Origin: a virus
Taxonomy: Duplodnaviria > Heunggongvirae > Uroviricota > Caudoviricetes
DNA length: 64,000 nt
IMG/VR virus record: IMGVR_UViG_2857349434_000001
Coordinates: 1-64,000 of that record
Reading direction: 5' to 3' (one strand)
The position numbers and the translations under genes are program-made. The notes under the pieces are model-generated. The model had not been told where the DNA came from. It made no database searches and saw only the letters and a list, made by a program, of their open reading frames with translations. Positions 4,217 through 63,508 of the stretch are shown here, piece after piece (positions within the stretch are counted from its first letter, which is position 1; each line of letters opens with the position of its first letter).

Positions 4217-4870
4217 TTAACCGACCTTTTCGAGGTCGTACTTCTCGGCGTAGTGGTCGGCCTTGTCCTTCGGATCGAAGTCCGGGTTGAACCAGATTGC
4301 GAAGAAGTCATCCTTCGCCAGGCCGGCGCCTTCCAGGTCGAGACCGTAGTGGTGGCTGAGGTTCCACTCGAACTGGCGCAGGTACTCGGCCTTTGCCCAG
4401 TCGCTGCCCAGGATCTCGTTGCGGGCCTTCCTCGGGTCCGGGAAGGCTTCTCCCGGCGTCACCGTGTTCACGATTGCCGGAATGATCTCCCAGTCATAGG
4501 CGCCGATCTCGCGGAACCACTCCGGCAGGAGGTCATAGACCTTCAGCACCCACTTGCCGATGTCGATGCTGTAATGGCGCAGCTCGACCGAGCCGACGCC
4601 TATCCGGTACGGGTGCCAGACCGGGTTTGGCTTGTCGGTAGCGACCGTGATCTCGCACAGGTACTCCCAGACGCACAGCGCCGCCTCCATCTCGAGGTGG
4701 CTATAGGCCTCGGGCAGATCCACGGCGATCTCCTGGCGGTAGACGCGAGCGCCGGCCTTGACCAGGTCCTCGGTCTTCGCCCTGGCATCCTTCTCGTCGA
4801 CGGCCAGTTCCCGGACGATGCCCGGCACCTCGTCGTGCTCGCCTTCGATGTAGAAGAGCTCAGCTCTCAT
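4217..4870 (-). CDS. hypothetical protein (217 aa)
   Basis: Start trimmed to Met15; ATGA-coupled to rtcB. Confidence 0.55.
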   Translation of the reverse strand: MRAELFYIEGEHDEVPGIVRELAVDEKDARAKTEDLVKAGARVYRQEIAVDLPEAYSHLEMEAALCVWEYLCEITVATDKPNPVWHPYRIGVGSVELRHYSIDIGKWVLKVYDLLPEWFREIGAYDWEIIPAIVNTVTPGEAFPDPRKARNEILGSDWAKAEYLRQFEWNLSHHYGLDLEGAGLAKDDFFAIWFNPDFDPKDKADHYAEKYDLEKVG

Positions 4871-6246
4871 TTCTTCTTCCTCTGCCAATGCATTTCGCCG
4901 GCCATGATGCAACCGTAGGGGTCGACGTAGTCGACGACCTCGGCCAGCCGGTGCTTATGGATCTGCCGCTGAACCTGCTCGGCGCTTTTGTAGGCGCTGG
5001 GCAGCTCGGACAGGTCCGGGGTGCCCAGGTAGAACCGAGCGTCAAGACCATTGGTCTCGCGCTGCAGGAGCTTGTCCGCGTCGTAGAACATGGTCGCGGT
5101 CTTCATGTACGCCGTCCGGCTCAGGTTCCGGCCGGCGCCGTGGGGCGAGAAGCCCAGGGCTTCGTCCTTGTCGGCGTGCCGGGTGACCATGATCGGCTCG
5201 GCCATGTTCATCGGGATCAGGGTCCGGCCGTCGTCGTCAGGCGAGAAGCCGGCGAAGGATGGTGTGGCGCCCTTGGCGTGGTAGAAGAGGCCGTCGTCGC
5301 GCCGGAACACGAAGTTATGCTCGTTCCAGAACCGATCGACCACGGAGTTGCCGATGCGCTGCTGGATGCGGTCGTGGAGGACGAAGTGGTTCAGCTTCGT
5401 CCACTCGCGGACCAGCTGGAGCGCCTCCCAGTAATCCTGGCCCGCCTCGGTGTCGGCGTCGATCCAGGCGGCCTGGGGGTCGGTCCTGGGCGACACGATC
5501 GCCGTGTGCTTCTTGGCCGCGGCCAGGCCTCGCTTGTAGACGAGCGCGCCGAGGCCACGGGAGCCGTGGTGGGTCACGATCGCCGGCTGGCCGGTCGAGC
5601 GCAGCGTGCCGACGAACAGGAAGTGGTTGCCGTCGCCCTGCGTGCCTAGATTGGTCTCGGCGATGTCACCGTATTTCGTCTGGCGGTCCTGGGTGAAGCG
5701 GTTGTAGTCGAGGTTGGCGCGGAGCGGCATGGGCAAGGCGAAGCCTTGCTTGCGCCCGCCCGGGCCGAAGTGCGTCACCTCCTGGGCGACGTCGAGGATC
5801 TTCTTCAGATCGTCGATGCGCTTGAAGACGGTGATCGCCATCGAGCAGCACACGTCAGCCGAATGGAAACCAGGGTGGATGGCGTTCTTGGTCGCCACCA
5901 CGCCGCCCACCGGGATGATCCCGGCGGGGCAGGCGTCGGGCATGACGACGGCCTTCTCAACGGTCGGCACCCGCACCAGCTTGTCCATGGCCTCGACGAC
6001 CAGGTCGAGGTTCTTCTGCTCGACGTCGTTCTCGGGTTCGAGGAAGACGTTGAACGGGAGGGAGTTGGTACGGAGCGGGATCTCGGGCGGCGCCGGAGGC
6101 AGGAGAGTGCCCACGGTGGCCCGAATGGCATCCTCGTCGCTACCGGACTCCGACATGAGGTTGGCGATCTCGATAGCTTCGCCGAACGACCTTCCTCGGC
6201 CTTTGGGGTCGAAGCCCCAGTCGATCAGCGTCTTGCCGGTGATCAT
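4867..6246 (-). CDS. rtcB: RtcB-family RNA 3'-phosphate ligase
   Basis: Motifs ADVCCSM (cf. DIGCGM), GDGNHF, HHGSRGLG and SPHGAGRN (cf. NHAGAGR); about 459 aa; GAAGGAA RBS. Confidence 0.85.
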   Translation of the reverse strand: MITGKTLIDWGFDPKGRGRSFGEAIEIANLMSESGSDEDAIRATVGTLLPPAPPEIPLRTNSLPFNVFLEPENDVEQKNLDLVVEAMDKLVRVPTVEKAVVMPDACPAGIIPVGGVVATKNAIHPGFHSADVCCSMAITVFKRIDDLKKILDVAQEVTHFGPGGRKQGFALPMPLRANLDYNRFTQDRQTKYGDIAETNLGTQGDGNHFLFVGTLRSTGQPAIVTHHGSRGLGALVYKRGLAAAKKHTAIVSPRTDPQAAWIDADTEAGQDYWEALQLVREWTKLNHFVLHDRIQQRIGNSVVDRFWNEHNFVFRRDDGLFYHAKGATPSFAGFSPDDDGRTLIPMNMAEPIMVTRHADKDEALGFSPHGAGRNLSRTAYMKTATMFYDADKLLQRETNGLDARFYLGTPDLSELPSAYKSAEQVQRQIHKHRLAEVVDYVDPYGCIMAGEMHWQRKKK

Positions 6247-9424: not shown

Positions 9425-9659
9425 GAGGTGGTTTTCTCCAAAGGTGTCTGTTCGAACCAAAAAGGTCGGCGTGCGCCAGGTCGTGTCCTCGGTGGAGGTC
9501 GCGGCGGAGCATCTGCTTCAGTGGGAGAAGCGGGGACCGAAATGGCGGAAGGCAGTTGAAATGTGTTTGGCCGCGATTGAGGGTAAGGTTGAGCCCGACG
9601 ATGTGGGCAAAGCCTTCAAAGCCGCGGCCGAGGAGTCGGGGATGTTGGAAGAGGATTGA
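9423..9659 (+). CDS. hypothetical protein (78 aa) upstream of the DNA ligase
   Basis: GAGGA RBS; stop overlaps the ligase start. Confidence 0.45.
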   Translation: MRWFSPKVSVRTKKVGVRQVVSSVEVAAEHLLQWEKRGPKWRKAVEMCLAAIEGKVEPDDVGKAFKAAAEESGMLEED

Positions 9660-10270
9660 TGCAGACCGAGCGGCTAAAGTTCATCAAGCCCATGAAGCCT
9701 CTGCTCGTGCGGGAGCCGCCAGTGAGCGACGACTGGCTGCACGAGATCAAATATGACGGCTTCCGGGTTCAGCTGATCCTCGACTGGGCCGGCGCTCGTG
9801 CCTTCACGAGGAACGAGCACGACTGGTCGCGGCGGTTCTGGCCGGTGGTCGACGCGGCCGAGAAGCTGAAGGCCAAGTCGTTCATCCTCGACGGCGAGAT
9901 GATCGCCCCTGAGCCTGACGGGCGGCCGAACTTCCTGCAGATGCATTCCCGCATGGCGTGGAATGCCGAACTGCTGGCCTATGTCGCCTTCGACATCCTG
10001 TATCTGGACGGCGAGGATCTTCGCGCCGTGCCCCTGATTGAGCGCAAGGCCAAGCTCTGGCAGCTGGTGAAGCCGGCGACCGGGATCATCCAGTATTCCC
10101 AGCACGTCGAGGGCGGCGGCGCAGATTTCTACGAGGCCGCCCAGCGGATGGGGCTGGAGGGGATCGTCTCGAAGCGTCGGGAGAGCCCCTACAAGAGCGG
10201 GGCGACCGACGCCTGGGTCAAGACGAAGTCGCCGAACTATCTCCGGCGCGAGCGGAAGCGAGCCGCTTAG
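9656..10270 (+). CDS. minimal ATP-dependent DNA ligase (nucleotidyltransferase domain only, 204 aa)
   Basis: Motif I IKYDGFRV (KxDGxR), motif III FILDGEMI, motif IV EGIVSK, motif V WVKTK; no OB domain. Confidence 0.75.
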   Translation: MMQTERLKFIKPMKPLLVREPPVSDDWLHEIKYDGFRVQLILDWAGARAFTRNEHDWSRRFWPVVDAAEKLKAKSFILDGEMIAPEPDGRPNFLQMHSRMAWNAELLAYVAFDILYLDGEDLRAVPLIERKAKLWQLVKPATGIIQYSQHVEGGGADFYEAAQRMGLEGIVSKRRESPYKSGATDAWVKTKSPNYLRRERKRAA

Positions 10271-13613: not shown

Positions 13614-14468
13614 CTACTTGTTGGCTTCCATGAACGGCACGGTGCCGTTCGGCAGCACGGTGGTGGGCAAGGTGCCGTTCCAGCGTTCGGCCTTGGTCAG
13701 ATCGATGATGAGCGGGTTGTTGGCCAGAGCCGAGGATCGGGCCTTGATCGCATCCGCTTCGGCATCGCCCTGGACCTTCGTGGCGTAGGCCTTGGCGTCA
13801 GCTTCGGCCTTCACGGAGTCAGCGCGGCCCTTGGCCTGGGCGACGGCGATCTCGGCCTTCACCTTTTCCTGCTCGTAGATCTGCTTCTGCTTCTGGACCT
13901 CGACCTCAGCCGTCATTCGAGCTTCGATGGTGGCCTCGTAGGCATCCGAGAAGTCGATGTTCTTGATCTGCACGGAGTCGACCACGATCGGCCCGATGGT
14001 GCCTTGGATCACCGCGTCGGCGATCTCGCGATTGAGCTCGGCGCGCTTCTGGATGGCGAGGACCGCCGTGTATTTGCCGAAGACCGTCTTCACGCTCTGG
14101 GGCACCGTCTGTTCGATGGTGCGCGAGACCAGCCCGTCCACGCTGCCGTAGTTCTGGTAGACGTTCTCCACCTGGCCGTCCGGGATGTGATAGATCACCG
14201 ACACGGCAAGGTTGGCGGTCTGCTGGTCCGACGAATAGGACGGCAGCGCGCTCTCGCCCTCCCATGTCAGCGCGTTCTGCCGGGTGGTGATCTTCACGAC
14301 CGACTGGAAGAACGGCGTTTTGAAGTGCAAGCCTGGTTCGGAGGTCGCGGTGTAGGCGCCGTTGGTGAGCAGGATACCGCGCTGGCCCTGGTCGACGGTG
14401 TAGAAGGAGGAAAAGCCGAGGATGAGGGCGCCGGCAATGGCGGCGCCCAGGGCAATGAGAGACTTCAT
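13614..14468 (-). CDS. SPFH/band-7 (prohibitin/HflC-like) membrane protein
   Basis: N-terminal TM segment, then YTVDQGQRGILLTNGAY... SPFH core and a coiled-coil EAR/K-rich C-terminus. Confidence 0.8.
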   Translation of the reverse strand: MKSLIALGAAIAGALILGFSSFYTVDQGQRGILLTNGAYTATSEPGLHFKTPFFQSVVKITTRQNALTWEGESALPSYSSDQQTANLAVSVIYHIPDGQVENVYQNYGSVDGLVSRTIEQTVPQSVKTVFGKYTAVLAIQKRAELNREIADAVIQGTIGPIVVDSVQIKNIDFSDAYEATIEARMTAEVEVQKQKQIYEQEKVKAEIAVAQAKGRADSVKAEADAKAYATKVQGDAEADAIKARSSALANNPLIIDLTKAERWNGTLPTTVLPNGTVPFMEANK

Positions 14469-14808: not shown

Positions 14809-15824
14809 GCTGCCTTCTCCATGGGTTCGTACCCGTCGCAGAACCATTCGGGGACGCGGCTGTCATCCTGCCAGTTGGCGCCGTAGGCCTCGTCGACGTA
14901 TTCCTGGAGGTCAGCGGGATCGACGCCCATGTTTTCCAGCACGTCGGCGATGACGTCTGGGTAGTCCTTGCATAGGTCCAGGAGCGAGCGTCTCCGCATG
15001 TCGTAGGACTTCTTGGCCGCGGTCTTCCACGAGCGGGGCGAATAGTAGCGATCGTCCTCCTCATCGACCTCGGATGGATCTCGCGAGATCGGGAGAGCGG
15101 CCCAGTCAACGTTCAGCAGCTTGTTGCGGAGCTCGATCAGGAACGGGACGTCCTGCTGCTCGCGGGTGGTGTGCTGCCCACGGTAGCCGACCGACACATT
15201 GGTGCATTCCGGGATCAGGTGGGAATACTCGGCCGTGTCGGTGTAGACGCCCCAGGAGGAGGGCTTGAAGCCGCCCAGCTGGTCGCCCAGGGCCTGGGCG
15301 AACTTGTCGGAGCACGTCCGGCCCGGGCTCTGGTGGGTGATGATGTCCTCGTAGTCCTGCCGATCAAAGGCGATCGCCGCCTCGAACTCGCGCAGGAAGT
15401 TCGGACACTCGTCGGCCAGGGCGCGCGACCCGATGCATCCGCTCTCCTCGCCGTGGTGGATGAGGTAGAAGCCTGGGATGTCGGCCTTGATCATTTCGGT
15501 CATGAGCCAGATGCCGGCCGTGTCGTCGGCGCCGAGACAGTTCGAGCCCTCGCGGATCGCCCGCTTGGAGAGCTTGAGGATGCCGTCGCGGTAGTCGAGC
15601 GTCTGGATGCCCTCCTTGCGGTGGACGGTGTCGACATGCGACGAGAACATGATCGTGGAGGGCTTGTCCCCCACGAGCAGGTAGAGGTTCAGTTGCTCGT
15701 CACGTTTGAAGCCCAGGGGCGTCAGGTAGGTGTCGATGAACCTCTGCTCCGTAAGGGAGCCTCGGGGGCGCCGATACTGGAACATTTCGAGGATCATGCG
15801 CTCGTCGGCTGACAGCTTGTTCAT
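14805..15824 (-). CDS. M20/M28/M42-superfamily zinc peptidase-like protein
   Basis: SSHVDTV (HxDTV), GADDTAG (GxxDDxxG) and HHGEESGCIGS (EExG) match the co-catalytic zinc peptidase motifs. Confidence 0.55.
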   Translation of the reverse strand: MNKLSADERMILEMFQYRRPRGSLTEQRFIDTYLTPLGFKRDEQLNLYLLVGDKPSTIMFSSHVDTVHRKEGIQTLDYRDGILKLSKRAIREGSNCLGADDTAGIWLMTEMIKADIPGFYLIHHGEESGCIGSRALADECPNFLREFEAAIAFDRQDYEDIITHQSPGRTCSDKFAQALGDQLGGFKPSSWGVYTDTAEYSHLIPECTNVSVGYRGQHTTREQQDVPFLIELRNKLLNVDWAALPISRDPSEVDEEDDRYYSPRSWKTAAKKSYDMRRRSLLDLCKDYPDVIADVLENMGVDPADLQEYVDEAYGANWQDDSRVPEWFCDGYEPMEKAA

Positions 15825-18766: not shown

Positions 18767-19195
18767 CTAGGCGGTGGCGCGGCGCTTCAGGATCTCGGCC
18801 ACGATCTCGGGCCGGTAGAACTCGTTGAGCTCGTCCTCGTCCACGGTCTCCTCGGCCACCAGCATCTGGATTTCTTCCAGCTCACGGTCGTTGAACTGGA
18901 CCAGCGTGGGGTCACGGGGGTCGCGCCATGTCTGCTTGGGGGCGTCGTCGTATTTCAGCTGGCGCTCGATGATCACGCGCCAGTGGGTGGGCTCGATACA
19001 GCGGGGCTCGTAGCAGTCCGGCTTGATTGAAATGTTGTCGTGGCCCACTAAGTCCAGCAGGACTCGGGCCGGGTTGCCGACGTGGTGCATGTGGGGCTTA
19101 CCGCGGTGCATCGGACCATCCCAGATCAGGTGGGCGCCGTCGCGGTGGGAGCATTTAGCCACGCGCTCGTGAGGTGGGGTCTTCGGTCTGGCCAT
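18767..19195 (-). CDS. hypothetical Cys/His-containing protein (142 aa), weakly HNH-like
   Basis: CSHRDGAHLIWDG...H.HH...CYEPRCIEPTHW; first gene downstream of the AT-rich regulatory island. Confidence 0.45.
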   Translation of the reverse strand: MARPKTPPHERVAKCSHRDGAHLIWDGPMHRGKPHMHHVGNPARVLLDLVGHDNISIKPDCYEPRCIEPTHWRVIIERQLKYDDAPKQTWRDPRDPTLVQFNDRELEEIQMLVAEETVDEDELNEFYRPEIVAEILKRRATA

Positions 19196-19400
19196 GGGTG
19201 CTCATGTAGGCAGACGGAATAAGGCTAGCAGTAGGAGTGTCACTTCCCCAGAACAAATATTTTTAAATTACTCTAGTACTAAGTTTTGTACGTGTGTCCT
19301 GAGTTAAACTTATTCCGCTAGCCTTATTCCTCCTAATGCGATGGGGAAGAGGAAAAGAAAATAGTACTTAATATAAGGGGAAGACGCCCTAGCAAAATCA
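19196..19400. promoter_or_regulatory. AT-rich (about 38% GC) regulatory island with a 14-bp inverted repeat GGAATAAGGCTAGC (19207-19220 / 19308-19321), three GGAATAAG octamers and the motif TCCCCAGAACAA
   Basis: Read directly; sharp compositional contrast with the surroundings; lies upstream of the minus-strand operon that starts at 19195. Confidence 0.5.
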
Positions 19401-21260: not shown

Positions 21261-21273
21261 TTCGCTCTCCGTT

Positions 21274-21584: not shown

Positions 21585-21610
21585 AAGGGCGCCCCGAAGA
21601 GCGCCCTTTC
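21585..21610 (-). terminator. rho-independent terminator (minus strand) after the gene at 21689..21916
   Basis: AAAGGGCGC-N8-GCGCCCUUU followed by UUCUGUUUGG on the minus strand; same stem family as the 2405..2437 terminator. Confidence 0.55.
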
Positions 21611-21688
21611 ATCTCGCGTCTTCTTGACCAAAACCCTAGTCCGAACCCGGGGCAGCGGTCAAACGCGTTACTATAGGATAAGTGGATT

Positions 21689-35531: not shown

Positions 35532-36731
35532 ATGCAGTTCAAGCCTCTCTCTCAGGTCAAGCGTCGGGGTGTGGAAGCTCTCGCGGCGTTGAAGTCGGAA
35601 GACCACGGCGCGTCCCGCAGCGCCGGCCAGAAGATCTTGGCCGAAGCCAAGTCCTTCGGCCTCGACATGCGTGACTACCTCAACCTCGCGATCGACGTCC
35701 GTCGCTCCGAGGACGCCGACAAGCTCTACCGCGACGACCGCGGCTATCTGTCGGGCTACGAGGCCTCGCTGGCCTTCCTGAACCTGCCGATCCAGAACGA
35801 CTTCGAGCGCGGCATCGTGCTGGAAGCTGCGTCGGACACGTTCCAGACGTTCCCGGGCGTCCGCGCCATCTTCCCGCAGGTCGTCGATGACGTCGTGCGC
35901 TGGAAGTTCCGCCAGGACAACCTGGAGACGACCCAGGCCATCGTTGGTTCGAGCCGCACGATGTCCGGCGTCGAGCTGATCTCGACCGTCGTGGACGACA
36001 AGCAGGAAGACTACCAGGTCGTGTCGGCGGTTGCCGAGCTCGGCCGCTTCCCGGTCAAGACGATCCGTCTGTCCGAGCAGTCGGTCAAGTTCTACAAGCA
36101 CGGCGGTGGCTATCGCTTCTCGTACGAGTTCGACCGTCGCGCCAGCATCGAGACGCTCGTTCCGTACGTGAACCGTATGGACCGCGAGAAGGAGCTGTCG
36201 AAGGTTCGTTCGGCGACCCACATCCTGATCAACGGCGACGGCGTCAACCCGGCCGCTCCTGTCGTGAAGCAGAAGGACTTCGTGTCCACCGCGACCGACA
36301 AGAAGCTGAACTACGAGGCGCTCCTGCGCTGGCTCGTGGCTCGCGCCCAGGCTGGTATCCCGGTCGACACCGTTGTCGGCAACTGGGACACCTACATCGA
36401 CTGGCTGCTGCTCTTCGCCATTCCGACGTCGAATGCAAACCGCACCGACGCCGAGAACCTGGCGGCCTCGGGCTTCCAGATCGGTGGTGTGCCGATCCTG
36501 CGCGGCACGGTGAACTTCGCCCTGTCGTCCTCGGCTCCGGCCAAGCAGCTCCTGGGCATGTCGCGCGGCGACACGCTGGAAGAGTTGAACGAGGGCGGCT
36601 CGCAGATCGAAGAGACCGAGCGTGCGATCACCAACCAGTCGATCACGTTCACCAAGTCCGAGAACACCGGCTACAAGCTGGCCTTCTCCGACACCCGGTC
36701 GATCTTCGATTACGACAGCACCGACGACTAA
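35532..36731 (+). CDS. major capsid protein candidate (399 aa)
   Basis: Gene order protease to capsid; GAGGA RBS; strong terminator immediately downstream. Confidence 0.6.
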   Translation: MQFKPLSQVKRRGVEALAALKSEDHGASRSAGQKILAEAKSFGLDMRDYLNLAIDVRRSEDADKLYRDDRGYLSGYEASLAFLNLPIQNDFERGIVLEAASDTFQTFPGVRAIFPQVVDDVVRWKFRQDNLETTQAIVGSSRTMSGVELISTVVDDKQEDYQVVSAVAELGRFPVKTIRLSEQSVKFYKHGGGYRFSYEFDRRASIETLVPYVNRMDREKELSKVRSATHILINGDGVNPAAPVVKQKDFVSTATDKKLNYEALLRWLVARAQAGIPVDTVVGNWDTYIDWLLLFAIPTSNANRTDAENLAASGFQIGGVPILRGTVNFALSSSAPAKQLLGMSRGDTLEELNEGGSQIEETERAITNQSITFTKSENTGYKLAFSDTRSIFDYDSTDD

Positions 36732-36737
36732 GAGCCC

Positions 36738-36772
36738 ATGAGCCCGCCGCCCCCAGGGCGGCGGGCCTTCTT
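36738..36772 (+). terminator. rho-independent terminator after the capsid gene
   Basis: GCCCGCCGCCCC-CAGG-GGCGGCGGGC followed by CTTCTTTG. Confidence 0.5.
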
Positions 36773-38378: not shown

Positions 38379-39339
38379 GGCCAAGATCACCGCCACCTTC
38401 ACGAAGCAGGGGTCCTCGATAAAAGGGGGCACCGCGTCCGCATCGGTCGGTCGGTCGGTCAATCAGTTCTCCACCTCGGATATGGGGCAGCTCCCTGGCG
38501 TCGTGGCGACCAATCTTGCAAGGACGATCGAACGCTCGAACCGTGTCAACTTTTTCGCCACCAAGGCCGAGACCTTGGCGAAGCGGATCTCGGACGGCAT
38601 CGACGCAGAGCTCCGCAAGATCGGGCAGTTCATCAGCGCCGAGCTGATCGGCCAGAGGTCTGAAACGGAGTACGGCGGCAAGACCTCGCTCGAGATCGAC
38701 GAGTTTGACGAGGCCGGCATCTTCGTCGACTGGCGTAATCTGGCCAACATCACCAGGCGCAAGAAGACCGCCAACAAGGACAAGTTCTTCCTACACACGA
38801 CGGCGCTGCGTTCCGAGATCCGCGCCAAGGCCGGCCCGGGCCTGGTCAACCTGAACACCGGCTTCAGGGCGCGCGGTGGTGGCGGCGTCGTGAGCTACGG
38901 GTGTGTGACGATCCGGCCCTACTACTATGACGACGACACCGGCAAGCGCGTCTACAAGATCGCCGACATCTCGATCAACCTGCTGGCCGGCGCCCCGGCC
39001 AACGTCGTTCGCGCCGTGTTGACGCAGCAGACCTTCAACCAGGACACGACGGTCGCTGGCAACATGCCCGTGCTGGCCCGACTGATGGGACTCAGCGACA
39101 GCGCGATCAAGAAGCTGGAGGGTGGGGTGCTCGACCGCAACCGTCCCAACCCGCGCAACCGGAGTGGCTTCAAGATCGGGTCGGTCCACAACGGTTTCAC
39201 CGGCCAGAGCATGAACTTCTACAGGCCGCTGCTGGAACCGTCCCTCGCATACTTCTTCCAGAAGAGAGTTCCGCTCGCGGTTGAGAAAGCCCTGAACCGC
39301 TATTCGATCGGCAAGGGCCGCACATATGGAGGTGCCTAA
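38362..39339 (+). CDS. hypothetical protein (325 aa)
   Basis: Coupled to the neighbouring genes. Confidence 0.45.
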   Translation: MPRSAKAKITATFTKQGSSIKGGTASASVGRSVNQFSTSDMGQLPGVVATNLARTIERSNRVNFFATKAETLAKRISDGIDAELRKIGQFISAELIGQRSETEYGGKTSLEIDEFDEAGIFVDWRNLANITRRKKTANKDKFFLHTTALRSEIRAKAGPGLVNLNTGFRARGGGGVVSYGCVTIRPYYYDDDTGKRVYKIADISINLLAGAPANVVRAVLTQQTFNQDTTVAGNMPVLARLMGLSDSAIKKLEGGVLDRNRPNPRNRSGFKIGSVHNGFTGQSMNFYRPLLEPSLAYFFQKRVPLAVEKALNRYSIGKGRTYGGA

Positions 39340-39788
39340 TGAGCTACATGAATGTCTGGACGTCCATCGCGGCCTACATCAACCAGCAGATCCAGATGAT
39401 CGCGGCCAACGGCATCGCGCCGGCCAACATGCTTCAGATGTTCGACTGGGAGGCGCATGCCAACATCGAGGAGGCACCAGCCCTACACCTGATCGGGCCG
39501 GCCTCATTGGCGCTCGACGAGGTCACGGACGGGATCTACAGCGCGACCTTCGTGATCGGCGTCGGCTCGTTCAATGATGAGGGGTTGTTCGTCCACCGCA
39601 GGATGGTGGACCACCTTTTCAAATCCCTGAAGACAGGAACGCGGCTATCGGTTTTCGACAGTCAGAGCGAGCAACCGTACAGCTGGCTCAAAATCGTTGA
39701 TGGAACCGCGGTCGCGCCGATGACCAAGGCCAATACGCGAGCGCTGCAATTCATTCAGGCCGAGGCGTTGGTAGATCCGATGGCGTAG
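39339..39788 (+). CDS. hypothetical protein (149 aa)
   Basis: ATGA coupling. Confidence 0.45.
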   Translation: MSYMNVWTSIAAYINQQIQMIAANGIAPANMLQMFDWEAHANIEEAPALHLIGPASLALDEVTDGIYSATFVIGVGSFNDEGLFVHRRMVDHLFKSLKTGTRLSVFDSQSEQPYSWLKIVDGTAVAPMTKANTRALQFIQAEALVDPMA

Positions 39789-39946
39789 TGCGCCTGGAGG
39801 ATAGCCCGGTTGGTCTCGTCTTCCTGGGCGAGAGCCGTCTCAACAAGAACGACGATCTCAGCCGACAAGGAGCGCCGGAGGAAGGTAGCACGGCGCTCCA
39901 AGATCTCCTTCAAGTCGTCGTCCACGTTCAGAGTAATCCGCTTCAT
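39755..39946 (-). CDS. ribbon-helix-helix (Arc/MetJ/CopG-like) DNA-binding protein, 63 aa, antisense to the late operon
   Basis: Trimmed to Met27; MKRITLNVDDDLKEILERRATFLRRSLSAEIVVLVETAL gives a beta-strand then two helices typical of RHH; overlaps the 3' end of 39339..39788. Confidence 0.55.
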   Translation of the reverse strand: MKRITLNVDDDLKEILERRATFLRRSLSAEIVVLVETALAQEDETNRAILQAHYAIGSTNASA

Positions 39947-40055
39947 TTTACACCATTGTGCTGCACACGTTGATTGCTCATGTAGGTGCTGGTGCCCACC
40001 TAACAAGCGCGATTGAAAGATCATTCTGCGCCGATTTCAAAAGGAGCACCACCAC

Positions 40056-40850
40056 ATGGCCGGTAACGCCAAAACCAACAAGTTTATGCTGTCCACGGCG
40101 ACCGTCATGCTCGGTCCCCTTGCTGACCTCCACCAGCTCAACCCGATGGAACATTCGATCGGTCTGGTGAAGAACTTCCAGCTGACCGGCGAAGCCCAGA
40201 TGACGGAGCTCACGCAGGGCATCCGCAATGCGGTTGTCATGTCCGTGCGTACGGGCGAAGGCCTCAAGACCTCCTGTGAGGTCTACGAGTTCACCGCGAA
40301 GAACCTCGCCTATGCTGCCGGTCTCGATGCCACCGGCACGAGCTTCGACGTCGTGGACGAGATGTCGGCCCTGAGCGCCGAGGTGACTGCCGCTGCTTCC
40401 GACATCGTGCTCGCGGTGGCGCCGACGAAGCCGATCGCCGCTGGCGACTACCTCTTCATCCAGAAGGGCCAGGACGACTACGTCCACGTCGTCAAGGTCG
40501 AGACCTGGACCGACGCGACCAAGACGGCAACGCTCGCCGCCGGCTTCGAGATCCCGACCGGCATGACCTTCCCGGTAGGCTCGCGCGTCGGCCGCCTGAA
40601 GAAGGTCGTCGTCGGTCAGACTGTTACCCAGCCCGACCTGGCCTGTAAGGTCACTGGCATCCTGCCGAAGGACAATACGCCGTTCACCATCCTTCTGCCG
40701 AAGGTCAAGGTGACGCGCGGTCTGGGCATCTCCTTCGCGTCGGACAACTTCTCGAACATGCCGTTCGAGATGCAGCCGTACCAGATGGTCACGACCGACC
40801 CGTTCTACGACGAATACGGCGACGGCCAGGCGATCCTGCTGGCGCGCTAA
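40056..40850 (+). CDS. major tail protein candidate (264 aa)
   Basis: Lies just upstream of the chaperone and tape-measure genes; a strong terminator follows. Confidence 0.55.
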   Translation: MAGNAKTNKFMLSTATVMLGPLADLHQLNPMEHSIGLVKNFQLTGEAQMTELTQGIRNAVVMSVRTGEGLKTSCEVYEFTAKNLAYAAGLDATGTSFDVVDEMSALSAEVTAAASDIVLAVAPTKPIAAGDYLFIQKGQDDYVHVVKVETWTDATKTATLAAGFEIPTGMTFPVGSRVGRLKKVVVGQTVTQPDLACKVTGILPKDNTPFTILLPKVKVTRGLGISFASDNFSNMPFEMQPYQMVTTDPFYDEYGDGQAILLAR

Positions 40851-40873
40851 TTTCCAAAAATCCGTAGAACAAG

Positions 40874-40914
40874 ACCTCGCCCGTGACTACATCACGGGCG
40901 AGGTTTTTCTTTAT
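40874..40914 (+). terminator. rho-independent terminator
   Basis: ACCTCGCCCGTGA-CTACAT-CACGGGCGAGGT followed by TTTTTCTTT. Confidence 0.65.
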
Positions 40915-40925
40915 CAGGAGCATCT

Positions 40926-41342
40926 ATGTCGGACGTACTAGAGGATCGTTTTGAGATCGAACAAAACGGCGAGAAGCGCGAAATCTTCATGTCCTTCGGA
41001 CTGCTCAACGAGATCACCGCTCTGATGAGCGAGCCGGCCCAGGCGGCCAGCGTGTACTTCAATCCTGTGCTTCGCGAGCGTGTGCTCCTGGCGGCCCTCC
41101 ACCTGCGTTCCAAATCAGGGAAAATCCAGGAAACGCTCGCGTCCCTTGACGACGTCGAGATCCCAGCTTCGGACATGGAAGCCCTCCTGGCATGGGAGGT
41201 GGATCATGCCATCGGTTTTTTCACTCGTTCAATGGACCGAGTGGTGAAGCTGAAGGGCGCCCTGGAAGAGCTCAATCAGGGCGCGTCTTCACTGAATGGG
41301 TCACCGGCCTCTCGTTCGAAGAAGCAATCATCTGGACGCTGA
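40926..41342 (+). CDS. tail assembly chaperone (G-like)
   Basis: Sits just upstream of the tape measure; a -1 overlapping ORF follows. Confidence 0.65.
   Translation: MSDVLEDRFEIEQNGEKREIFMSFGLLNEITALMSEPAQAASVYFNPVLRERVLLAALHLRSKSGKIQETLASLDDVEIPASDMEALLAWEVDHAIGFFTRSMDRVVKLKGALEELNQGASSLNGSPASRSKKQSSGR
41216..41222 (+). promoter_or_regulatory. -1 programmed ribosomal frameshift slippery heptamer T_TTT_TTC
   Basis: In the G frame the codons read GGT TTT TTC; the -1 ORF (open from 41192) continues CAC...; the overlap geometry is checked against the ORF track. Confidence 0.55.
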
Positions 41343-41593
41343 AGGTCAAGCCGAGCGATCTCCGCGAGGTCTACTGGAGCCACACCTACCAGGACCTCGT
41401 GACCATCGTCCGGCTGAACACGGAAGGAAAGGTAGCGGAACTCGGTCAGCACTTCGACAACCTGGCAACGGTGATCTCGAAGGTGCTCGGCGGTTCCGAT
41501 GACGAGGACGACAATGAGGACGTCACAGTGGTCGAAAGCTGGGATGACCTTGTAGCGGCCTTCAACACGCTAGGGGGTCAAGTTGGCGCTTGA
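41222..41593 (+). CDS. frameshift extension of the tail chaperone (G-T fusion product)
   Basis: The -1 frame is open from 41192 to 41593 and ends inside the tape-measure start; classic G/GT arrangement. Confidence 0.55.
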   Translation, partial: HSFNGPSGEAEGRPGRAQSGRVFTEWVTGLSFEEAIIWTLKVKPSDLREVYWSHTYQDLVTIVRLNTEGKVAELGQHFDNLATVISKVLGGSDDEDDNEDVTVVESWDDLVAAFNTLGGQVGA

Positions 41594-59108: not shown

Positions 59109-61520
59109 TCACTTGTTGAAGTCGACCGGACACGCCCCGCTCTCGCAGTCGATGTGGACCTTGTCCACGTCCTCCGCCATCTGTTCAGCGATCGAGGCGA
59201 CAATCGCCTCATAGCGCGCCTTGGTGACAGGTTCCTCCGGCTGATACTCGTAGGACAGGGCGTCGACCTTCGGCAGCACCGACACGGCGCGCACCGTGTT
59301 GATGTTGGCATCCATGACCTTCGAGTATTCCTTGTAGCTCACCTTCTTGGGATCGTACTTCAGCGTGTAGGAGACCTGGTTGCCACCCTCACGGCCGATC
59401 CAGAACGTCTCCAGGAGCCTGAGCCAGCGGAACTGCTCCTCCATCGTCGCCTCGGACGCCGTGACGACCTCCGGCATGCCCAGCTGGCAGATCACCTGGG
59501 AGGTGGGGAAGCCGACGATCGTGGTGCCGGCGTAGCTCTGCAGCTCCTTGGTCGGATAGCCCTTGGCGGCGTATTCGGCCACCAGTGGGTCGTCAGAGCG
59601 GAACTGGACCCAGCGGAGGTACTCGCGCATGGGAGGCAGGTGAGCGCCCTCGGTGAGGCCGAAGAGCTTGCTGGTCGTGCCGGCCGGCTTGATGGTCCGG
59701 CGGGTGTGCGGGAACACGACGCCGAGATCCCGGCTGTAGCTGCTGGCCTCTTCGTCGACCACGCCGGCGAGCTCCTTCAGGCGGAGCCAGAAGGGCAGGG
59801 CGCGCGCGGCCGGCATCGGCATGAAGTTGCCGTTGGCGTCCTGCACCTGGTGGCCGTCACCGTCGATGGAGATCAGATCCCGGAAGGTGAGGCCGAAGCG
59901 CGCCCAGGCCCACTCCAGGATGCCCGTCAGGGACACCCCGATGCGGTTCGTGCGCTTGACCTCCCGGTCGTACATCGAGGACATGAGGTTGGTGCGGATC
60001 AGAGCGCGGGTGATATGGCGTGTGGCCTGTTCCTCTTCCCAGCTGTCGTTGGCGTGGAAGAGCGCCAGGTCGCCGATCACGCAGAAGGCGCCCAGGATGT
60101 AGAGCACGATCTCGCCGCAGGGGTTCACGATGAACTGGTAGACGTGATCCATGACCAGCTCGGCCATGGCGATCTGCATCTCGCGGAAGTCCTCGCCGCC
60201 GAACTTGGCGTAGGGGTAGACCAGGTAGTCGTCGGTGCCTTTGCGGTTGACGCTCAGCTTGGAGACGTTGAGGAAGCCGGTCTCGCCGGTGAGATCGTGG
60301 TACTGGCGGCGCTTCATGGCCTCGTTCAGATCGTGTGCCCACTTCTCCAGGCCGGTGAGCTCGATGCCGTTGCGCAGCATGTGCTTGGCACGGCGGAGGC
60401 ACTCGTAGAACTCGTCGTCGACCGCGACCGAGTTGTTCGAGGACCAGAGGAACGAGCCGTACTGCGGGAGGCCGGCCATGCTGTCGACCTCTTCCCAGCT
60501 GCGGCCGATGAACTCGATCGGGCGCTTGAGGTCGATGAAGGCGAAGATGCCGGGGTCTTTCCAGTATTTGGTCGCGATGCGCGCAGCGCGACGGGCGCCG
60601 CCCACCAGGACGCATTCGGCCAGATAGTGGTCGGCGTACATCGCCGCTGCCCATTTCGGCATGTCGAGGCCGCGTAGGCGAGCCACATTGGCGATCGCGC
60701 CCATGAGCGGGCCGGGGCCGGAGGCCGGGCGGTTCTGCATGCCCTTGATCGGCTCGCCGAAGCCGCGGACCTTGCTGAAGTCGAGGATGAGGAAGTGGTC
60801 GGTCAGGCCCTTGTAGGTGGCGACCTCGATCTCCTCCACGGCCTTGGCCCAGCCCTCACGGCTGTCGTCCACCATGTGGTAGATAGTCTTCTGGCCGGCG
60901 TGGAGGTGCATGGCCTCGCGCGGCGTCATGTAGCCGGAGATCCGACCAGACAGCACGTCAGGGTGGGTGTTGTCGATCACGCAGACCACGCGCGGCTGGA
61001 TCGTCCAGTCGACGAGCATCAGGGCGTCGTCGTAGCTCGAGCCCACGCCGGAGCCGGAGAGCAGCAGCTGGAAGGCCATGGCGCGGAACATCGCCGTCGA
61101 GCAGTTGGTGAAGACCTCCATCGGGCGGTCCTTCTGGCGGATGTCGCCGTGCTGAAGATGGCGGCCGGAGAGCAGGATGGTGCCCTCGGCGATGTGGTAG
61201 CGGAGGCCGTCCAGGTCGTAGCAGTGCGGGTGGAGAGAGGTGTTGCCCTCGGCCACGCGCAGAGCGACGTCGGCCCAGGTCTCGCGCCGCGTCTCCGGCT
61301 TACGGCCCATGAACGGTACGGTCTTGTCGTCGACGATCTTGATCAGGGGGAAGGTAAGGCTTAGTGCGGACCACCACGACTTGTAGTCGGGGTCGGCGGG
61401 GTTAAGAGAGACGGAGCGCGCGCCTGCCCATTCGGTCTTCGCTTCGTCGGTGAGGATCAGGCGAGAAACGGTGCGCTCGGCGACACCCTGGCCCATCCCC
61501 GGAAAGAAATCTCGGGACAT
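59109..61520 (-). CDS. ribonucleotide reductase, probably class II (adenosylcobalamin-dependent NrdJ-like)
   Basis: 803 aa; thiyl-radical loop NPCGEI; C-terminal CESGAC pair. Confidence 0.7.
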   Translation of the reverse strand: MSRDFFPGMGQGVAERTVSRLILTDEAKTEWAGARSVSLNPADPDYKSWWSALSLTFPLIKIVDDKTVPFMGRKPETRRETWADVALRVAEGNTSLHPHCYDLDGLRYHIAEGTILLSGRHLQHGDIRQKDRPMEVFTNCSTAMFRAMAFQLLLSGSGVGSSYDDALMLVDWTIQPRVVCVIDNTHPDVLSGRISGYMTPREAMHLHAGQKTIYHMVDDSREGWAKAVEEIEVATYKGLTDHFLILDFSKVRGFGEPIKGMQNRPASGPGPLMGAIANVARLRGLDMPKWAAAMYADHYLAECVLVGGARRAARIATKYWKDPGIFAFIDLKRPIEFIGRSWEEVDSMAGLPQYGSFLWSSNNSVAVDDEFYECLRRAKHMLRNGIELTGLEKWAHDLNEAMKRRQYHDLTGETGFLNVSKLSVNRKGTDDYLVYPYAKFGGEDFREMQIAMAELVMDHVYQFIVNPCGEIVLYILGAFCVIGDLALFHANDSWEEEQATRHITRALIRTNLMSSMYDREVKRTNRIGVSLTGILEWAWARFGLTFRDLISIDGDGHQVQDANGNFMPMPAARALPFWLRLKELAGVVDEEASSYSRDLGVVFPHTRRTIKPAGTTSKLFGLTEGAHLPPMREYLRWVQFRSDDPLVAEYAAKGYPTKELQSYAGTTIVGFPTSQVICQLGMPEVVTASEATMEEQFRWLRLLETFWIGREGGNQVSYTLKYDPKKVSYKEYSKVMDANINTVRAVSVLPKVDALSYEYQPEEPVTKARYEAIVASIAEQMAEDVDKVHIDCESGACPVDFNK

Positions 61521-61553
61521 AAAAAACCTCTCAGTTCGGTGGGAACTGAGAGG
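61521..61553 (-). terminator. rho-independent terminator (minus strand)
   Basis: CCUCUCAGUU-N7-AACUGAGAGG followed by UUUUUU. Confidence 0.6.
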
Positions 61554-61605
61554 TAAGAAATCAAAATCTTGTATGTCAGTGATGCAATTTGCTCACCCTA
61601 TAGTA

Positions 61606-62172
61606 TCACCACTTTTTTCCGCCGACGCCCTTACGGTGTTCGGCGGTGTGGTCTTTCCTGACCTTGTTGAAGGCCGTCTTCTCAAGGTAGGCGCCGTCGA
61701 GATCATAGTCCCACTTGTTGGCGTATTCCTTGATCCGCTCCAGCGTGTTGTAGAGCTGCTCGCCGATCAACCTACGGGCCTCGGGGAAATAGTCACGATC
61801 GTTGTAGCAGAGCTCGCCGAGCTCCACGACCATCTTTGAGATGTCGAACAGGGCAGCACCCTTGTTGTCGGGGAGCGGTTCCAGGCTGTAGCCGCCAGGG
61901 CGGATGTCGTAGCCATAGGCGCCGGCGAAGTCGCCGATGCGAATGATGGCGTCGACCAGTTCCACCTCGGCCGCGGGGCGGAGAGGCAACTTGTCGTCCA
62001 TCAGGCCCTTGCGCTCGCCCTCCATCGCCTCGGCGATCTCTGACACGACGAGCATGAGCAGCTCGTCCTTGTCTCGATCCAGGCGAGCGCCGGTGTCTAG
62101 GTCGTGCCACCACTTGGCATTGTTCTGGTGGCATTCGTAGGCGAGCTGGTTGTAGGAGAGACCGTTGATCAT
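61606..62172 (-). CDS. MazG-like nucleotide pyrophosphohydrolase candidate (188 aa)
   Basis: Trimmed to Met35; LVVSEIAEAMEGERK resembles the MazG EExxE helix; weak call. Confidence 0.4.
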   Translation of the reverse strand: MINGLSYNQLAYECHQNNAKWWHDLDTGARLDRDKDELLMLVVSEIAEAMEGERKGLMDDKLPLRPAAEVELVDAIIRIGDFAGAYGYDIRPGGYSLEPLPDNKGAALFDISKMVVELGELCYNDRDYFPEARRLIGEQLYNTLERIKEYANKWDYDLDGAYLEKTAFNKVRKDHTAEHRKGVGGKKW

Positions 62173-62378
62173 TCGAAACCTCGTCTGATGAGCGCGGCGA
62201 CCACGACGCCTGTCCAGGCACCGGCGCCAAGCGCGGGGATTTGCATGTCGAAGGGGGAGGGGAAGGTGAGCCACAGGCCGTACGCGATGACGCCGGCCAG
62301 TGGTGGCACCACGATCAGGCAGATGAGCGCCGTGATCGTGGTGAAGGTCTCGATGACCTTACGCACTGGGTGACTCAT
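62169..62378 (-). CDS. small membrane protein (69 aa)
   Basis: Trimmed to Met36; two hydrophobic helices. Confidence 0.45.
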   Translation of the reverse strand: MSHPVRKVIETFTTITALICLIVVPPLAGVIAYGLWLTFPSPFDMQIPALGAGAWTGVVVAALIRRGFE

Positions 62379-62985
62379 AGGGCCACGGTGGGAACCTGGT
62401 GCCCGGGTCCAGGAAGCCGTCCACGAGGGGGATCGGCGTGCCCACTTCAGCCGGGTTCGGTGGATAGCCTGGGAGGCTCTCACTCAGCTCTTCGAACTGA
62501 CCTGCGATGACCTCGTCATTGGCAAGGTTCCTGACCGTCTCCTCCGAGAGCTCGTCCAAGACGATGGTAGCCTTGAGCTCGGCCTGCTGGCGCTGCCGGA
62601 GACGCTCCTTGTGGACCGCCTTCAGACGCTCGACCCATTCCTCGCCCTGGTGGAGGAGATCGGCCTCGACCTGGGACTTGCGCCGGTTGTCGATCAGCGT
62701 GCCGTGGGCGGCTGCGTCGATCAGGATCGAGCAGCACGCCTTGACGGCGCCGAGGTTCTTGACGAACGTGTCGCGGGTCAGCTCCTCGCCGACCTTGTAG
62801 AGCTGCAGGTGGCGCATGGCCGCCTCGACGTACGTCATGGCCTCGACCATGGTGTCCCGCCAGTTGTGCGGGTCGTACTTCAGCATCCCGTCGTAGAGGG
62901 CCTCCAGCTCTGCCAGCTGGGCGGAGAGCGGGATGTAGGCCAGCGGGGGCTTCTTGTCGCCGAAGGCTTGCTTGGGATTAGACAT
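62359..62985 (-). CDS. hypothetical protein (208 aa)
   Basis: Track ORF; reasonable composition. Confidence 0.5.
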   Translation of the reverse strand: MSNPKQAFGDKKPPLAYIPLSAQLAELEALYDGMLKYDPHNWRDTMVEAMTYVEAAMRHLQLYKVGEELTRDTFVKNLGAVKACCSILIDAAAHGTLIDNRRKSQVEADLLHQGEEWVERLKAVHKERLRQRQQAELKATIVLDELSEETVRNLANDEVIAGQFEELSESLPGYPPNPAEVGTPIPLVDGFLDPGTRFPPWPYESPSA

Positions 62986-63508
62986 GGAGCAGGCCCTCCT
63001 TGACGAAGAGCTTGGTCAGCTCGGTCTCGCAACGACGCTGGCCCCAGAAGTCGACCTTAACGCCGCCGAGCGGTTCCCAGAACTTGGCGTTCCAGGGCTC
63101 GTCGAAGACCTGGAGCATCTCGTCCGCGCAGATGCGACGGTCGTATTGCTCCAGCTCCTCCATGTGTTCCCACGGCTCGTTGACGGACAGGAAGATCACG
63201 CGGAGCATGGCCTTCTCCAGGGCGCTGTAGCCGTCGATCGCACGCTTGATCGGGTTCGGGAGATCCAGCAGACCAAAGCCTTCGGACGTGTCGTGCAGGA
63301 TGGCGGCCCGCCGGAGGTGCTTCGGCACCTGGCGGTAGAGCTTCACCTCATGCTCGGCCACGTAGTAGGGCTTCTTGGTCTGGCCGGAGTAGCGGGGAAG
63401 ACGAGAGAGCGCGCGGATGGCGACCTTGAAGTCGACATCGGTGACCTGGAAGTCCAGCGGATTTACCAGGCGCATGTTGCCCAACAAGATACGAGGATCA
63501 GCTCCCAT
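62978..63508 (-). CDS. HD-domain 5'-deoxynucleotidase (YfbR-like)
   Basis: YYVAEHEV...ILHDTSEGFGLLDLPNPIK parallels the YfbR H...LHDASE..TGDLPTPVK. Confidence 0.6.
   Translation of the reverse strand: MGADPRILLGNMRLVNPLDFQVTDVDFKVAIRALSRLPRYSGQTKKPYYVAEHEVKLYRQVPKHLRRAAILHDTSEGFGLLDLPNPIKRAIDGYSALEKAMLRVIFLSVNEPWEHMEELEQYDRRICADEMLQVFDEPWNAKFWEPLGGVKVDFWGQRRCETELTKLFVKEGLLHV

Follow-up and report, generated by a model that had tools for sequence, protein, structure and literature searches.

Mnt, a regulator of phage P22, is a ribbon-helix-helix (RHH) repressor whose gene lies within the late region and is transcribed against it. Arc, from the same phage, represses two overlapping divergent promoters from an operator that lies between them, and AmrZ of Pseudomonas aeruginosa activates as well as represses. 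The stretch of DNA analysed here, referred to as the window (64,000 nucleotides, positions 1 to 64,000 of the IMG/VR virus record IMGVR_UViG_2857349434_000001), carries a small RHH gene on the minus strand, within a block of structural genes on the plus strand and directly 5' of the gene for the major tail (tube) protein (MTP). An Arc/CopG-type RHH gene lying antisense inside this co-directional block had been proposed in a sequence-only reading, and selection, profile, fold and synteny all bear the proposal out. The interpretation favoured here, to which sequence comparison lends about an even chance, is that the protein would be an autoregulated repressor that acts on the spacer shared with the MTP gene and controls transcription toward that gene. 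Coordinates of the features are collected in Table 1.

This kind of protein is already known, as the orthologue in phage JWF (PJWF_00017, AJD82911.1) is annotated in GenBank as an 'Arc-like DNA binding domain protein', while that of phage 2-1 is a 'hypothetical protein'. Both orthologues (65-66 aa) are encoded on the minus strand at the same position, likewise between the last connector/tail-completion gene and the MTP gene, overlap the 3' end of the upstream gene and have a spacer of about 90 bp. They differ in being only 21-23% identical to the window protein and in the recognition strand, which is FTLRIP instead of RITLNV; moreover, a clear promoter runs rightward in the JWF spacer, and a predicted one leftward in that of the window. 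In the 31-kb structural block of JWF (6356-37794) the RHH gene is the sole minus-strand coding sequence. Literature searches found no functional study of the gene in JWF, phage 2-1, Caulobacter phage Seuss, Xylophilus phage Lumi or Acinetobacter phage TCUP2199, and nothing on the timing of structural genes in this phage group.

Because the DNA is 62% GC, with dozens of open reading frames (ORFs) of similar size nearby on both strands, a 63-codon ORF is in itself no evidence of a gene, and the evidence was supplied by conservation. The ratio of non-synonymous to synonymous substitution rates (dN/dS) was 0.03-0.13 at dS 0.35-1.9 in 21 pairwise comparisons of seven DNA copies, and ten proteins 81-94% identical to the window RHH protein were found in Mesorhizobium genomes and assemblies. 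The ORF called mechanically in the window is longer (89 aa, from an ATG at 40024). In the relatives L006 and L010, however, this extension is closed by a stop codon just 5' of the MKRIT start, and in L006, L010, L011 and L012 the mechanical ORF itself starts at MKRIT, so that the 63-aa form is the conserved one. The public gene calls for an identical 72-kb contig include exactly the same 63-aa gene.

With the MTP as anchor, 97 loci were fetched from phage records, IMG/VR and GTDB genomes, and ORFs were scored (cut-off E < 1e-3) against an RHH profile derived from five initial orthologues. A minus-strand ORF matching this profile was found directly 5' of the MTP gene in 73 of the 98 MTP-anchored loci, and a divergent RHH-like ORF was recognised by eye at the same position in eight more, giving a total of about 80 loci and 62 distinct proteins. 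Most of the RHH-bearing loci are uncultured viral contigs; the named records belong to alpha-, beta- and gamma-proteobacteria, with one Muribaculaceae metagenome-assembled genome. The RHH gene keeps its place beside the MTP gene even where MTP identity has fallen to 33-45%, and the distance from ATG to ATG is 87-122 bp in about 75 of the 80 loci. At its other end the gene overlaps the convergent upstream gene by a median of 32 bp in 60 of 62 distinct loci. The overlap with the end of gene 39339..39788 had been seen in the sequence-only reading, and it is indeed convergent, taking up the last 34 bp of the RHH gene; it encodes the C-terminal tail of the protein, which is variable and of low confidence in the structural model. 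Since the 3' ends overlap, there is no room for a terminator between the two genes.

Judged by size only, the ORF could be a spurious one that arose by chance between two tail genes in DNA of high GC content, since many chance ORFs of this size lie around it on both strands, and the window protein's own Pfam scores are under the gathering thresholds. The probability of this explanation is nevertheless negligible in view of the low dN/dS, the orthologues sharing the RHH sequence pattern at about 80 loci, the confident AlphaFold2 (AF2) model and the annotation of the gene in JWF and in public assemblies. The conservation pattern refutes it, and the comparisons confirm that the gene is genuine.

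Public annotations miss the orthologues of Seuss and Lumi. In Lumi, a 275-bp 'gap' before the MTP gene, between Lumi_016 and Lumi_017, contains the RHH orthologue (L004, 1644..~1900, minus strand; MVEDDLVASSIRIPRRLDDMVKQRAAAARRSRNSEIISLLEVAID...). In Seuss, an unannotated 130-aa ORF (L001, 3496..3888, minus strand; 15171..15563 of the record) occupies the RHH position and has two RHH repeats in one chain, with profile matches at residues 1-55 and 56-118. The same two-repeat profile match was found in four uncultured relatives (L035, L036, L037 and L072), and L058 appears by eye to be a double RHH, although only one profile match was obtained. These ORFs of Seuss and five uncultured relatives may be natural single-chain dimers. 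F-plasmid TraY is likewise a tandem RHH chain, and Pfam TraY is matched by 2 of 37 family members; the window protein, in contrast, has a single repeat, and TraY is a relaxosome accessory protein from another context.

The window protein alone gave only sub-threshold Pfam matches, namely FitA-like_RHH (8.6e-4), RHH_5 (1.1e-3) and Arc (0.12), the last (PF03869) with 12.6 bits against a gathering cut-off of 20.4. The family as a whole was more informative: 19 of 37 positional orthologues matched Pfam Arc at E <= 0.01 (best 2.8e-8), and a profile of the 37 orthologues matched, among proteins of the PDB, AmrZ at 2.3e-9, Arc at 6e-6 and Mnt at 2e-3. At the level of the family, these profile comparisons point to the Arc/Mnt/AmrZ clade. 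The AF2 monomer model, made with 26 sequences, has a mean predicted local distance difference test score (pLDDT) of 84, with residues 1-9 extended and helices at 10-22 and 27-57, and its confidence drops past about residue 45. In a Foldseek comparison with the PDB all 50 listed matches were RHH proteins or RHH domains, and the model has the layout of the superfamily, with a predicted N-terminal strand, two helices and the turn motif at the start of helix 2. Arg25 is nearly invariant in the 37 orthologues, within the consensus RRS. RHH proteins are obligate dimers that recognise specific DNA sequences by placing a two-stranded sheet in the major groove. The predicted recognition strand is formed by residues 2-8 (KRITLNV), of which R3, T5 and N7, aligned to Q9, N11 and R13 of Arc, would face the DNA.

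The top Foldseek matches included AtaR, KacA and TacA (template modelling score 0.72-0.86), antitoxins of GNAT toxins that resemble the model in their long second helix. Together with FitA-like_RHH as best single-sequence Pfam match, this is what could be said for an orphan type II antitoxin, or for a moron with a host-directed or anti-defence role that has nothing to do with the tail genes. AtaR, KacA and TacA, however, have an adjacent toxin gene, which is absent at every RHH locus, and the sequence profiles prefer Arc, AmrZ and Mnt to the antitoxin families. The RHH gene is monocistronic and no minus-strand toxin ORF accompanies it; since its 3' end overlaps the convergent tail gene in nearly all distinct loci, nothing can be co-transcribed 3' of it. 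No match was obtained with PADLOC and no support from NCBIfam, and morons are patchy in distribution, whereas this gene is positionally fixed over a large clade. The antitoxin role is therefore rejected for want of a toxin gene at any locus, the wider explanation being very unlikely, and the view of the sequence-only reading, that a regulator is far likelier than an antitoxin because there is no toxin partner, was upheld. The best PHROG match of the protein, phrog_795, is labelled partition protein. Centromere-binding RHH proteins of the ParG/omega type, however, have a ParA ATPase gene as partner and iterated centromere repeats close by, whereas the neighbours here are tail genes and 39930-40070 contains no iterated repeats.

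Compared with P22, Arc (PDB 1arq, 1par) has the same fold and, at family level, falls in the same clade, the family profile matching over residues 4-44, and is, as the window protein, a small single-domain protein of a phage late region. Arc is nevertheless co-transcribed with the antirepressor gene ant, in the ant direction, and controls it, whereas the window has no ant and its RHH gene is monocistronic and faces the operon. Mnt (PDB 1mnt) also matches the family profile, and the window element is of the temperate type as well; however, Mnt has a C-terminal tetramerisation domain where the window protein has a short, poorly predicted C-terminal extension, and it is a lysogeny-maintenance factor acting on the ant promoter, while the family of the window gene is kept in JWF, for which no integrase is annotated. 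The analogy with P22 immI drawn in the sequence-only reading thus holds in part: an RHH gene embedded in the structural block on the opposite strand, facing the late transcript, recalls mnt, but no antirepressor ORF was found between the RHH and MTP genes in the window or the related loci, and the RHH gene is divergent from the MTP gene. In immI, overlapping divergent promoters have the operator between them; the window shows a leftward promoter-like element only, and leftward and rightward elements overlap in Lumi and in L070, L071 and L086. The locus is not an immI module, as it has no antirepressor gene and the RHH gene also occurs outside the integrase carriers. The best profile match, AmrZ (AlgZ; PDB 3qoq), extends over the strand and both helices and is also a close structural match (root-mean-square deviation 0.8 Å over 43 columns), although AmrZ acts as a global regulator, is encoded on the chromosome and is extended at both termini, and the window protein is a phage protein.

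The window represents most of an approximately 80-kb siphovirus-type element, a Mesorhizobium-type prophage, and shows the gene order of JWF- and Seuss-type siphoviruses of this size: capsid, terminator, connectors, MTP, terminator, frameshift chaperone and tape measure. Family profile scans gave no family match for the product of gene 39339..39788, although JWF, Seuss, phage 2-1 and Lumi each have an orthologue at this place. The window MTP shares 41-43% identity with its counterparts in JWF and Seuss and has a weak NCBIfam tail-tube match. Two strong, GC-rich hairpin terminators, one after gene 35532..36731, a putative capsid gene by its position, and the other after the MTP gene, bracket the connector genes, the RHH gene and the MTP gene. 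Terminators are annotated likewise after the capsid and MTP genes in JWF and Seuss, a layout which points to attenuation as the means of balancing abundant against rare virion proteins. The MTP gene is followed by a homologue of the tape-measure chaperone (phrog_37198) and by an 1813-aa tape measure protein (PF10145). The chaperone gene (40926-41342, plus strand) overlaps an ORF in another frame (41192-41593, plus strand) just before the tape measure gene, which is the usual layout of a programmed frameshift and is annotated in Seuss.

The non-coding gap between the RHH and MTP genes, put at 110 bp in the sequence-only reading, exists but measures 109 bp. In the four closest relatives that lack a 20-bp deletion, the spacer is 93-97% identical to that of the window, while identity at the third codon positions of the RHH gene is no more than 55-80%; the spacer is thus conserved about as well as codon positions 1 and 2, or non-synonymous sites, and far better than third positions. 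As judged by this comparison, it is under selection. Promoter-like elements occur in it at conserved distances. In many loci, including the sister Mesorhizobium group, a leftward TTGATA-16/17-TATATT or close variant is present (alpha-type), the -10 of which ends 32-35 nt before the RHH ATG. The predicted sigma-70-type promoter of the window is its positional homologue, with a -35 CTTGTT (40007..40002), a 16-nt spacer and a -10 CTACAT (39985..39980) ending 33 nt short of the ATG. In beta-proteobacterial (beta-type) loci, such as JWF and the Burkholderia prophages, a rightward TTGATT-17-TAGGAT ends 32-35 nt before the MTP ATG instead, and a conserved block, TA(A/T)ACC-N5-AAACCTTTG...GGT, covers its -35 and spacer. 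The 20-nt core of this block occurs a single time in the first 50 kb of JWF, and therefore it is not a general late-promoter motif.

The only dyad of the window spacer is the inverted repeat TAGGTG-N8-CACCTA, which is a tentative candidate for the operator. Its right arm is invariant in seven relatives, and the one further match in the window is weak and within a coding region. A regulon search with CCACCTAACAAGCG returned matches at chance level, and with TTGATTGCTCATGTAGG one partial second copy was found, at the start of the minus-strand gene 18767..19195; this copy has no matching -35, and the sharing of a 12-mer is near chance expectation. The 12-mer in question, TGCTCATGTAGG (19199-19210), adjoins the start of that gene and matches exactly the -10 region predicted for the RHH promoter. 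The segment in which it lies, 19196-19400, is non-coding and rich in AT, in contrast to the 62% GC of the genome, and contains a perfect 14-bp inverted repeat, GGAATAAGGCTAGC (19216-29) and GCTAGCCTTATTCC (19307-20), with arms 77 nt apart. An RNA element in the RHH-MTP spacer was considered and rejected, as there was no Rfam match and folding gave a z-score of -1.0; with seven relatives, RNAalifold returned a positive covariation term and not one compensatory pair, and a T-A to G-C swap noticed by eye (39986-95 against 40046-55) fails in L012.

On the reading of the protein as an autoregulated repressor, a dimer of the Arc/Mnt/AmrZ clade would be expressed from a sigma-70-type promoter of the host kind within the spacer, with transcription running leftward and opposite to the structural operon. 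We infer that it would bind operators in the same spacer, repress its own promoter and, when bound, control transcription that starts in the spacer or passes through it toward the MTP gene, which is the probable regulated target. Of all tail genes, that of the MTP has to supply the most copies, and a dedicated, regulated entry point before its gene makes sense because a terminator follows the putative capsid gene, low-copy connector genes lie between, and another terminator follows the MTP gene. Late transcripts entering strongly from upstream would cross the RHH gene in antisense orientation and turn the repressor off, and the outcome would be a simple early-off, late-on switch. Because JWF, with no annotated integrase, keeps the module, a function specific to lysogeny is unlikely.

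A bolder version of this proposal, which is possible but clearly less probable, is that the RHH gene and its spacer of about 100 bp form a self-contained 'tail gate' across the clade of approximately 80-kb siphoviruses, with and without integrase. An Arc-like repressor made early by the host polymerase would hold the MTP promoter shut until late, convergent transcription of the head and connector genes silenced the repressor gene by collision or antisense, so that tail synthesis would be coupled to prior expression of the head genes. Such a gate would be an immI-like switch with no antirepressor, serving morphogenetic timing and not immunity, and in Seuss and the five uncultured relatives its repressor would have turned into a single-chain double RHH.

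Several observations weigh against the autoregulated repressor. About 15 of the 98 related loci have no RHH gene, among them Pseudoalteromonas phage KB12-38 and phage TCUP2199, in which the two tail genes abut or nearly so, and the gene is therefore dispensable for this virion type. Promoters and ribosome-binding sites could by themselves account for the conservation of the spacer. In a scan of the whole window with a rhizobial consensus the leftward promoter match was at chance level (3 found against 3.6 in shuffles); as this match is not significant, the promoter call is one of comparative position only. No rightward MTP promoter is recognisable by consensus in the window, and an E. coli-type scan of 39300-41000 found no promoter. 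Finally, the left arm of the inverted repeat is degenerate in L008 and L012 in spite of nearly the same recognition strands.

Promoters that depend on an activator typically lack a good -35/-10 pair, and none faces the MTP gene in the window or its close relatives; some promoter is expected in the spacer from the bracketing terminators. The RHH protein might then be an activator that binds 5' of a tail promoter in the spacer, weak and unlike the consensus, and is needed to turn on MTP synthesis, and that AmrZ is the best family-level PDB match would suit this. The beta-type rightward promoter, however, departs little from consensus, and the block conserved across its -35 and spacer is placed as a repressor site would be; about 15 related loci manage without the gene, and small single-domain Arc/Mnt/CopG proteins repress as a rule. 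An activator is accordingly held to be unlikely.

The repressor interpretation was also set against that of a Mnt-like immunity or maintenance regulator with distant targets, such as two palindromes at 21.3 kb, the proximity of the MTP gene being incidental. The sequence-only reading had named the RHH protein as a candidate binder of these sites. They are real: the pattern TTGCTC-N4-GAGCAA occurs in the window at those two sites only, 12-93 nt 5' of a minus-strand gene that starts at 21262 and has GGAGAG as its ribosome-binding site. A hairpin terminator (near 21590-21617) and an AT-rich stretch precede the palindromes, and four close relatives (L222-L225, retrieved by a primase anchor) have TGCTCA-N2-TGAGCA at this location. 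Such a promoter or leader position, two subsites 8 bp apart, a geometry compatible with RHH binding to operators of the MetJ type, an integrase in the window, and the failure of Pfam or PHROG scans to recognise a helix-turn-helix protein or other DNA-binding regulator in about 30 further ORFs, so that the RHH protein is to date the one transcription factor recognised in the window, all speak for distant targets. Nothing, however, links the palindromes to the RHH gene. Its control region has no copy, only a lone 7-nt half-site within chance expectation, and with up to 2 mismatches the pattern occurs nowhere near the gene; the four relatives share the RHH recognition strand, so this comparison does not discriminate. 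The position next to the MTP gene, kept despite strong MTP divergence, argues against an incidental placement, and JWF keeps the gene with no annotated integrase or repressor. A scan of viral contigs for the exact pattern returned unrelated chance matches only, and a search with the 242-aa protein encoded downstream of the palindromes found no relatives. The palindromes are likely operators of the leftward operon starting at 21262, and a distant-target regulator is considered improbable.

Table 1 Features of the window
Feature	Position	Strand	Remarks
Tyrosine integrase gene	111-1322	minus	left end of window
DUF7227 protein gene	1652-2407	minus	adjoins integrase; E = 1e-83
Palindrome TTGCTCAATTGAGCAA	21274-21289		16 bp, TTGCTC-N4-GAGCAA
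Palindrome TTGCTCGATTGAGCAA	21340-21355		16 bp, TTGCTC-N4-GAGCAA
Hairpin terminator	36742..36766	plus	GC-rich; directly 3' of gene 35532..36731
Last head-tail connector/tail-completion gene	39339..39788	plus	149 aa; converges on RHH gene
Convergent 3'-3' overlap, RHH gene and upstream tail gene	39755..39788		34 bp
RHH gene	39755..39946	minus	63 aa, MKRITLNVDDDLKEILERRATFLRRSLSAEIVVLVETALAQEDETNRAILQAHYAIGSTNASA; from ORF and translation, dN/dS, synteny, profile and AF2
Divergent spacer, RHH gene and MTP gene	39947..40055		non-coding, 109 bp
Predicted leftward sigma-70-type promoter, RHH gene	39980..40007	minus	from positional homology
Inverted repeat TAGGTG-N8-CACCTA	39983..40002		within promoter spacer; only dyad of window spacer
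MTP gene	40056..40850	plus	phrog_28493 at 1e-79; phrog_807 'major tail protein'
Hairpin terminator	40871..40907	plus	GC-rich; directly 3' of MTP gene
Class II ribonucleotide reductase gene	59109..61520	minus	
Pyrophosphatase gene	61606..62274	minus	
MazZ-like dATP/dGTP diphosphohydrolase domain gene	62359..62985	minus	PF18909
Deoxynucleoside monophosphate phosphatase gene	62978..63508	minus	

The tyrosine integrase of the window marks the element as one of the temperate type. Integration is not shared by the whole group, since no integrase is annotated in JWF; the JWF annotations also name no repressor and no transcription factor other than the RHH protein, and the first two JWF genes and their counterparts of the same size at the right end are read, by size, as terminal repeats. 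The window also encodes a primase/helicase, as well as an RtcB RNA ligase (4867-6246, minus strand), an ATP-dependent DNA/RNA ligase (9656-10270, plus strand) and an SPFH/Band 7 protein (13614-14468, minus strand). The nucleotide-metabolism block at 59109-63508 on the minus strand may represent a modified-base pathway.

New here are how widely and how rigidly the arrangement is kept, the orthologues that annotations had missed, and the proteins with a double RHH in one chain. The fixed position, the spacer length and the convergent overlap mark a small regulatory module. Were the protein only an autoregulated accessory repressor, this would be an ordinary finding. If, instead, it gates the tail promoter, the module would exemplify, in compact and natural form, how a repressor can be combined with transcriptional interference in a virion operon, and would provide a handy part for engineering these phages.

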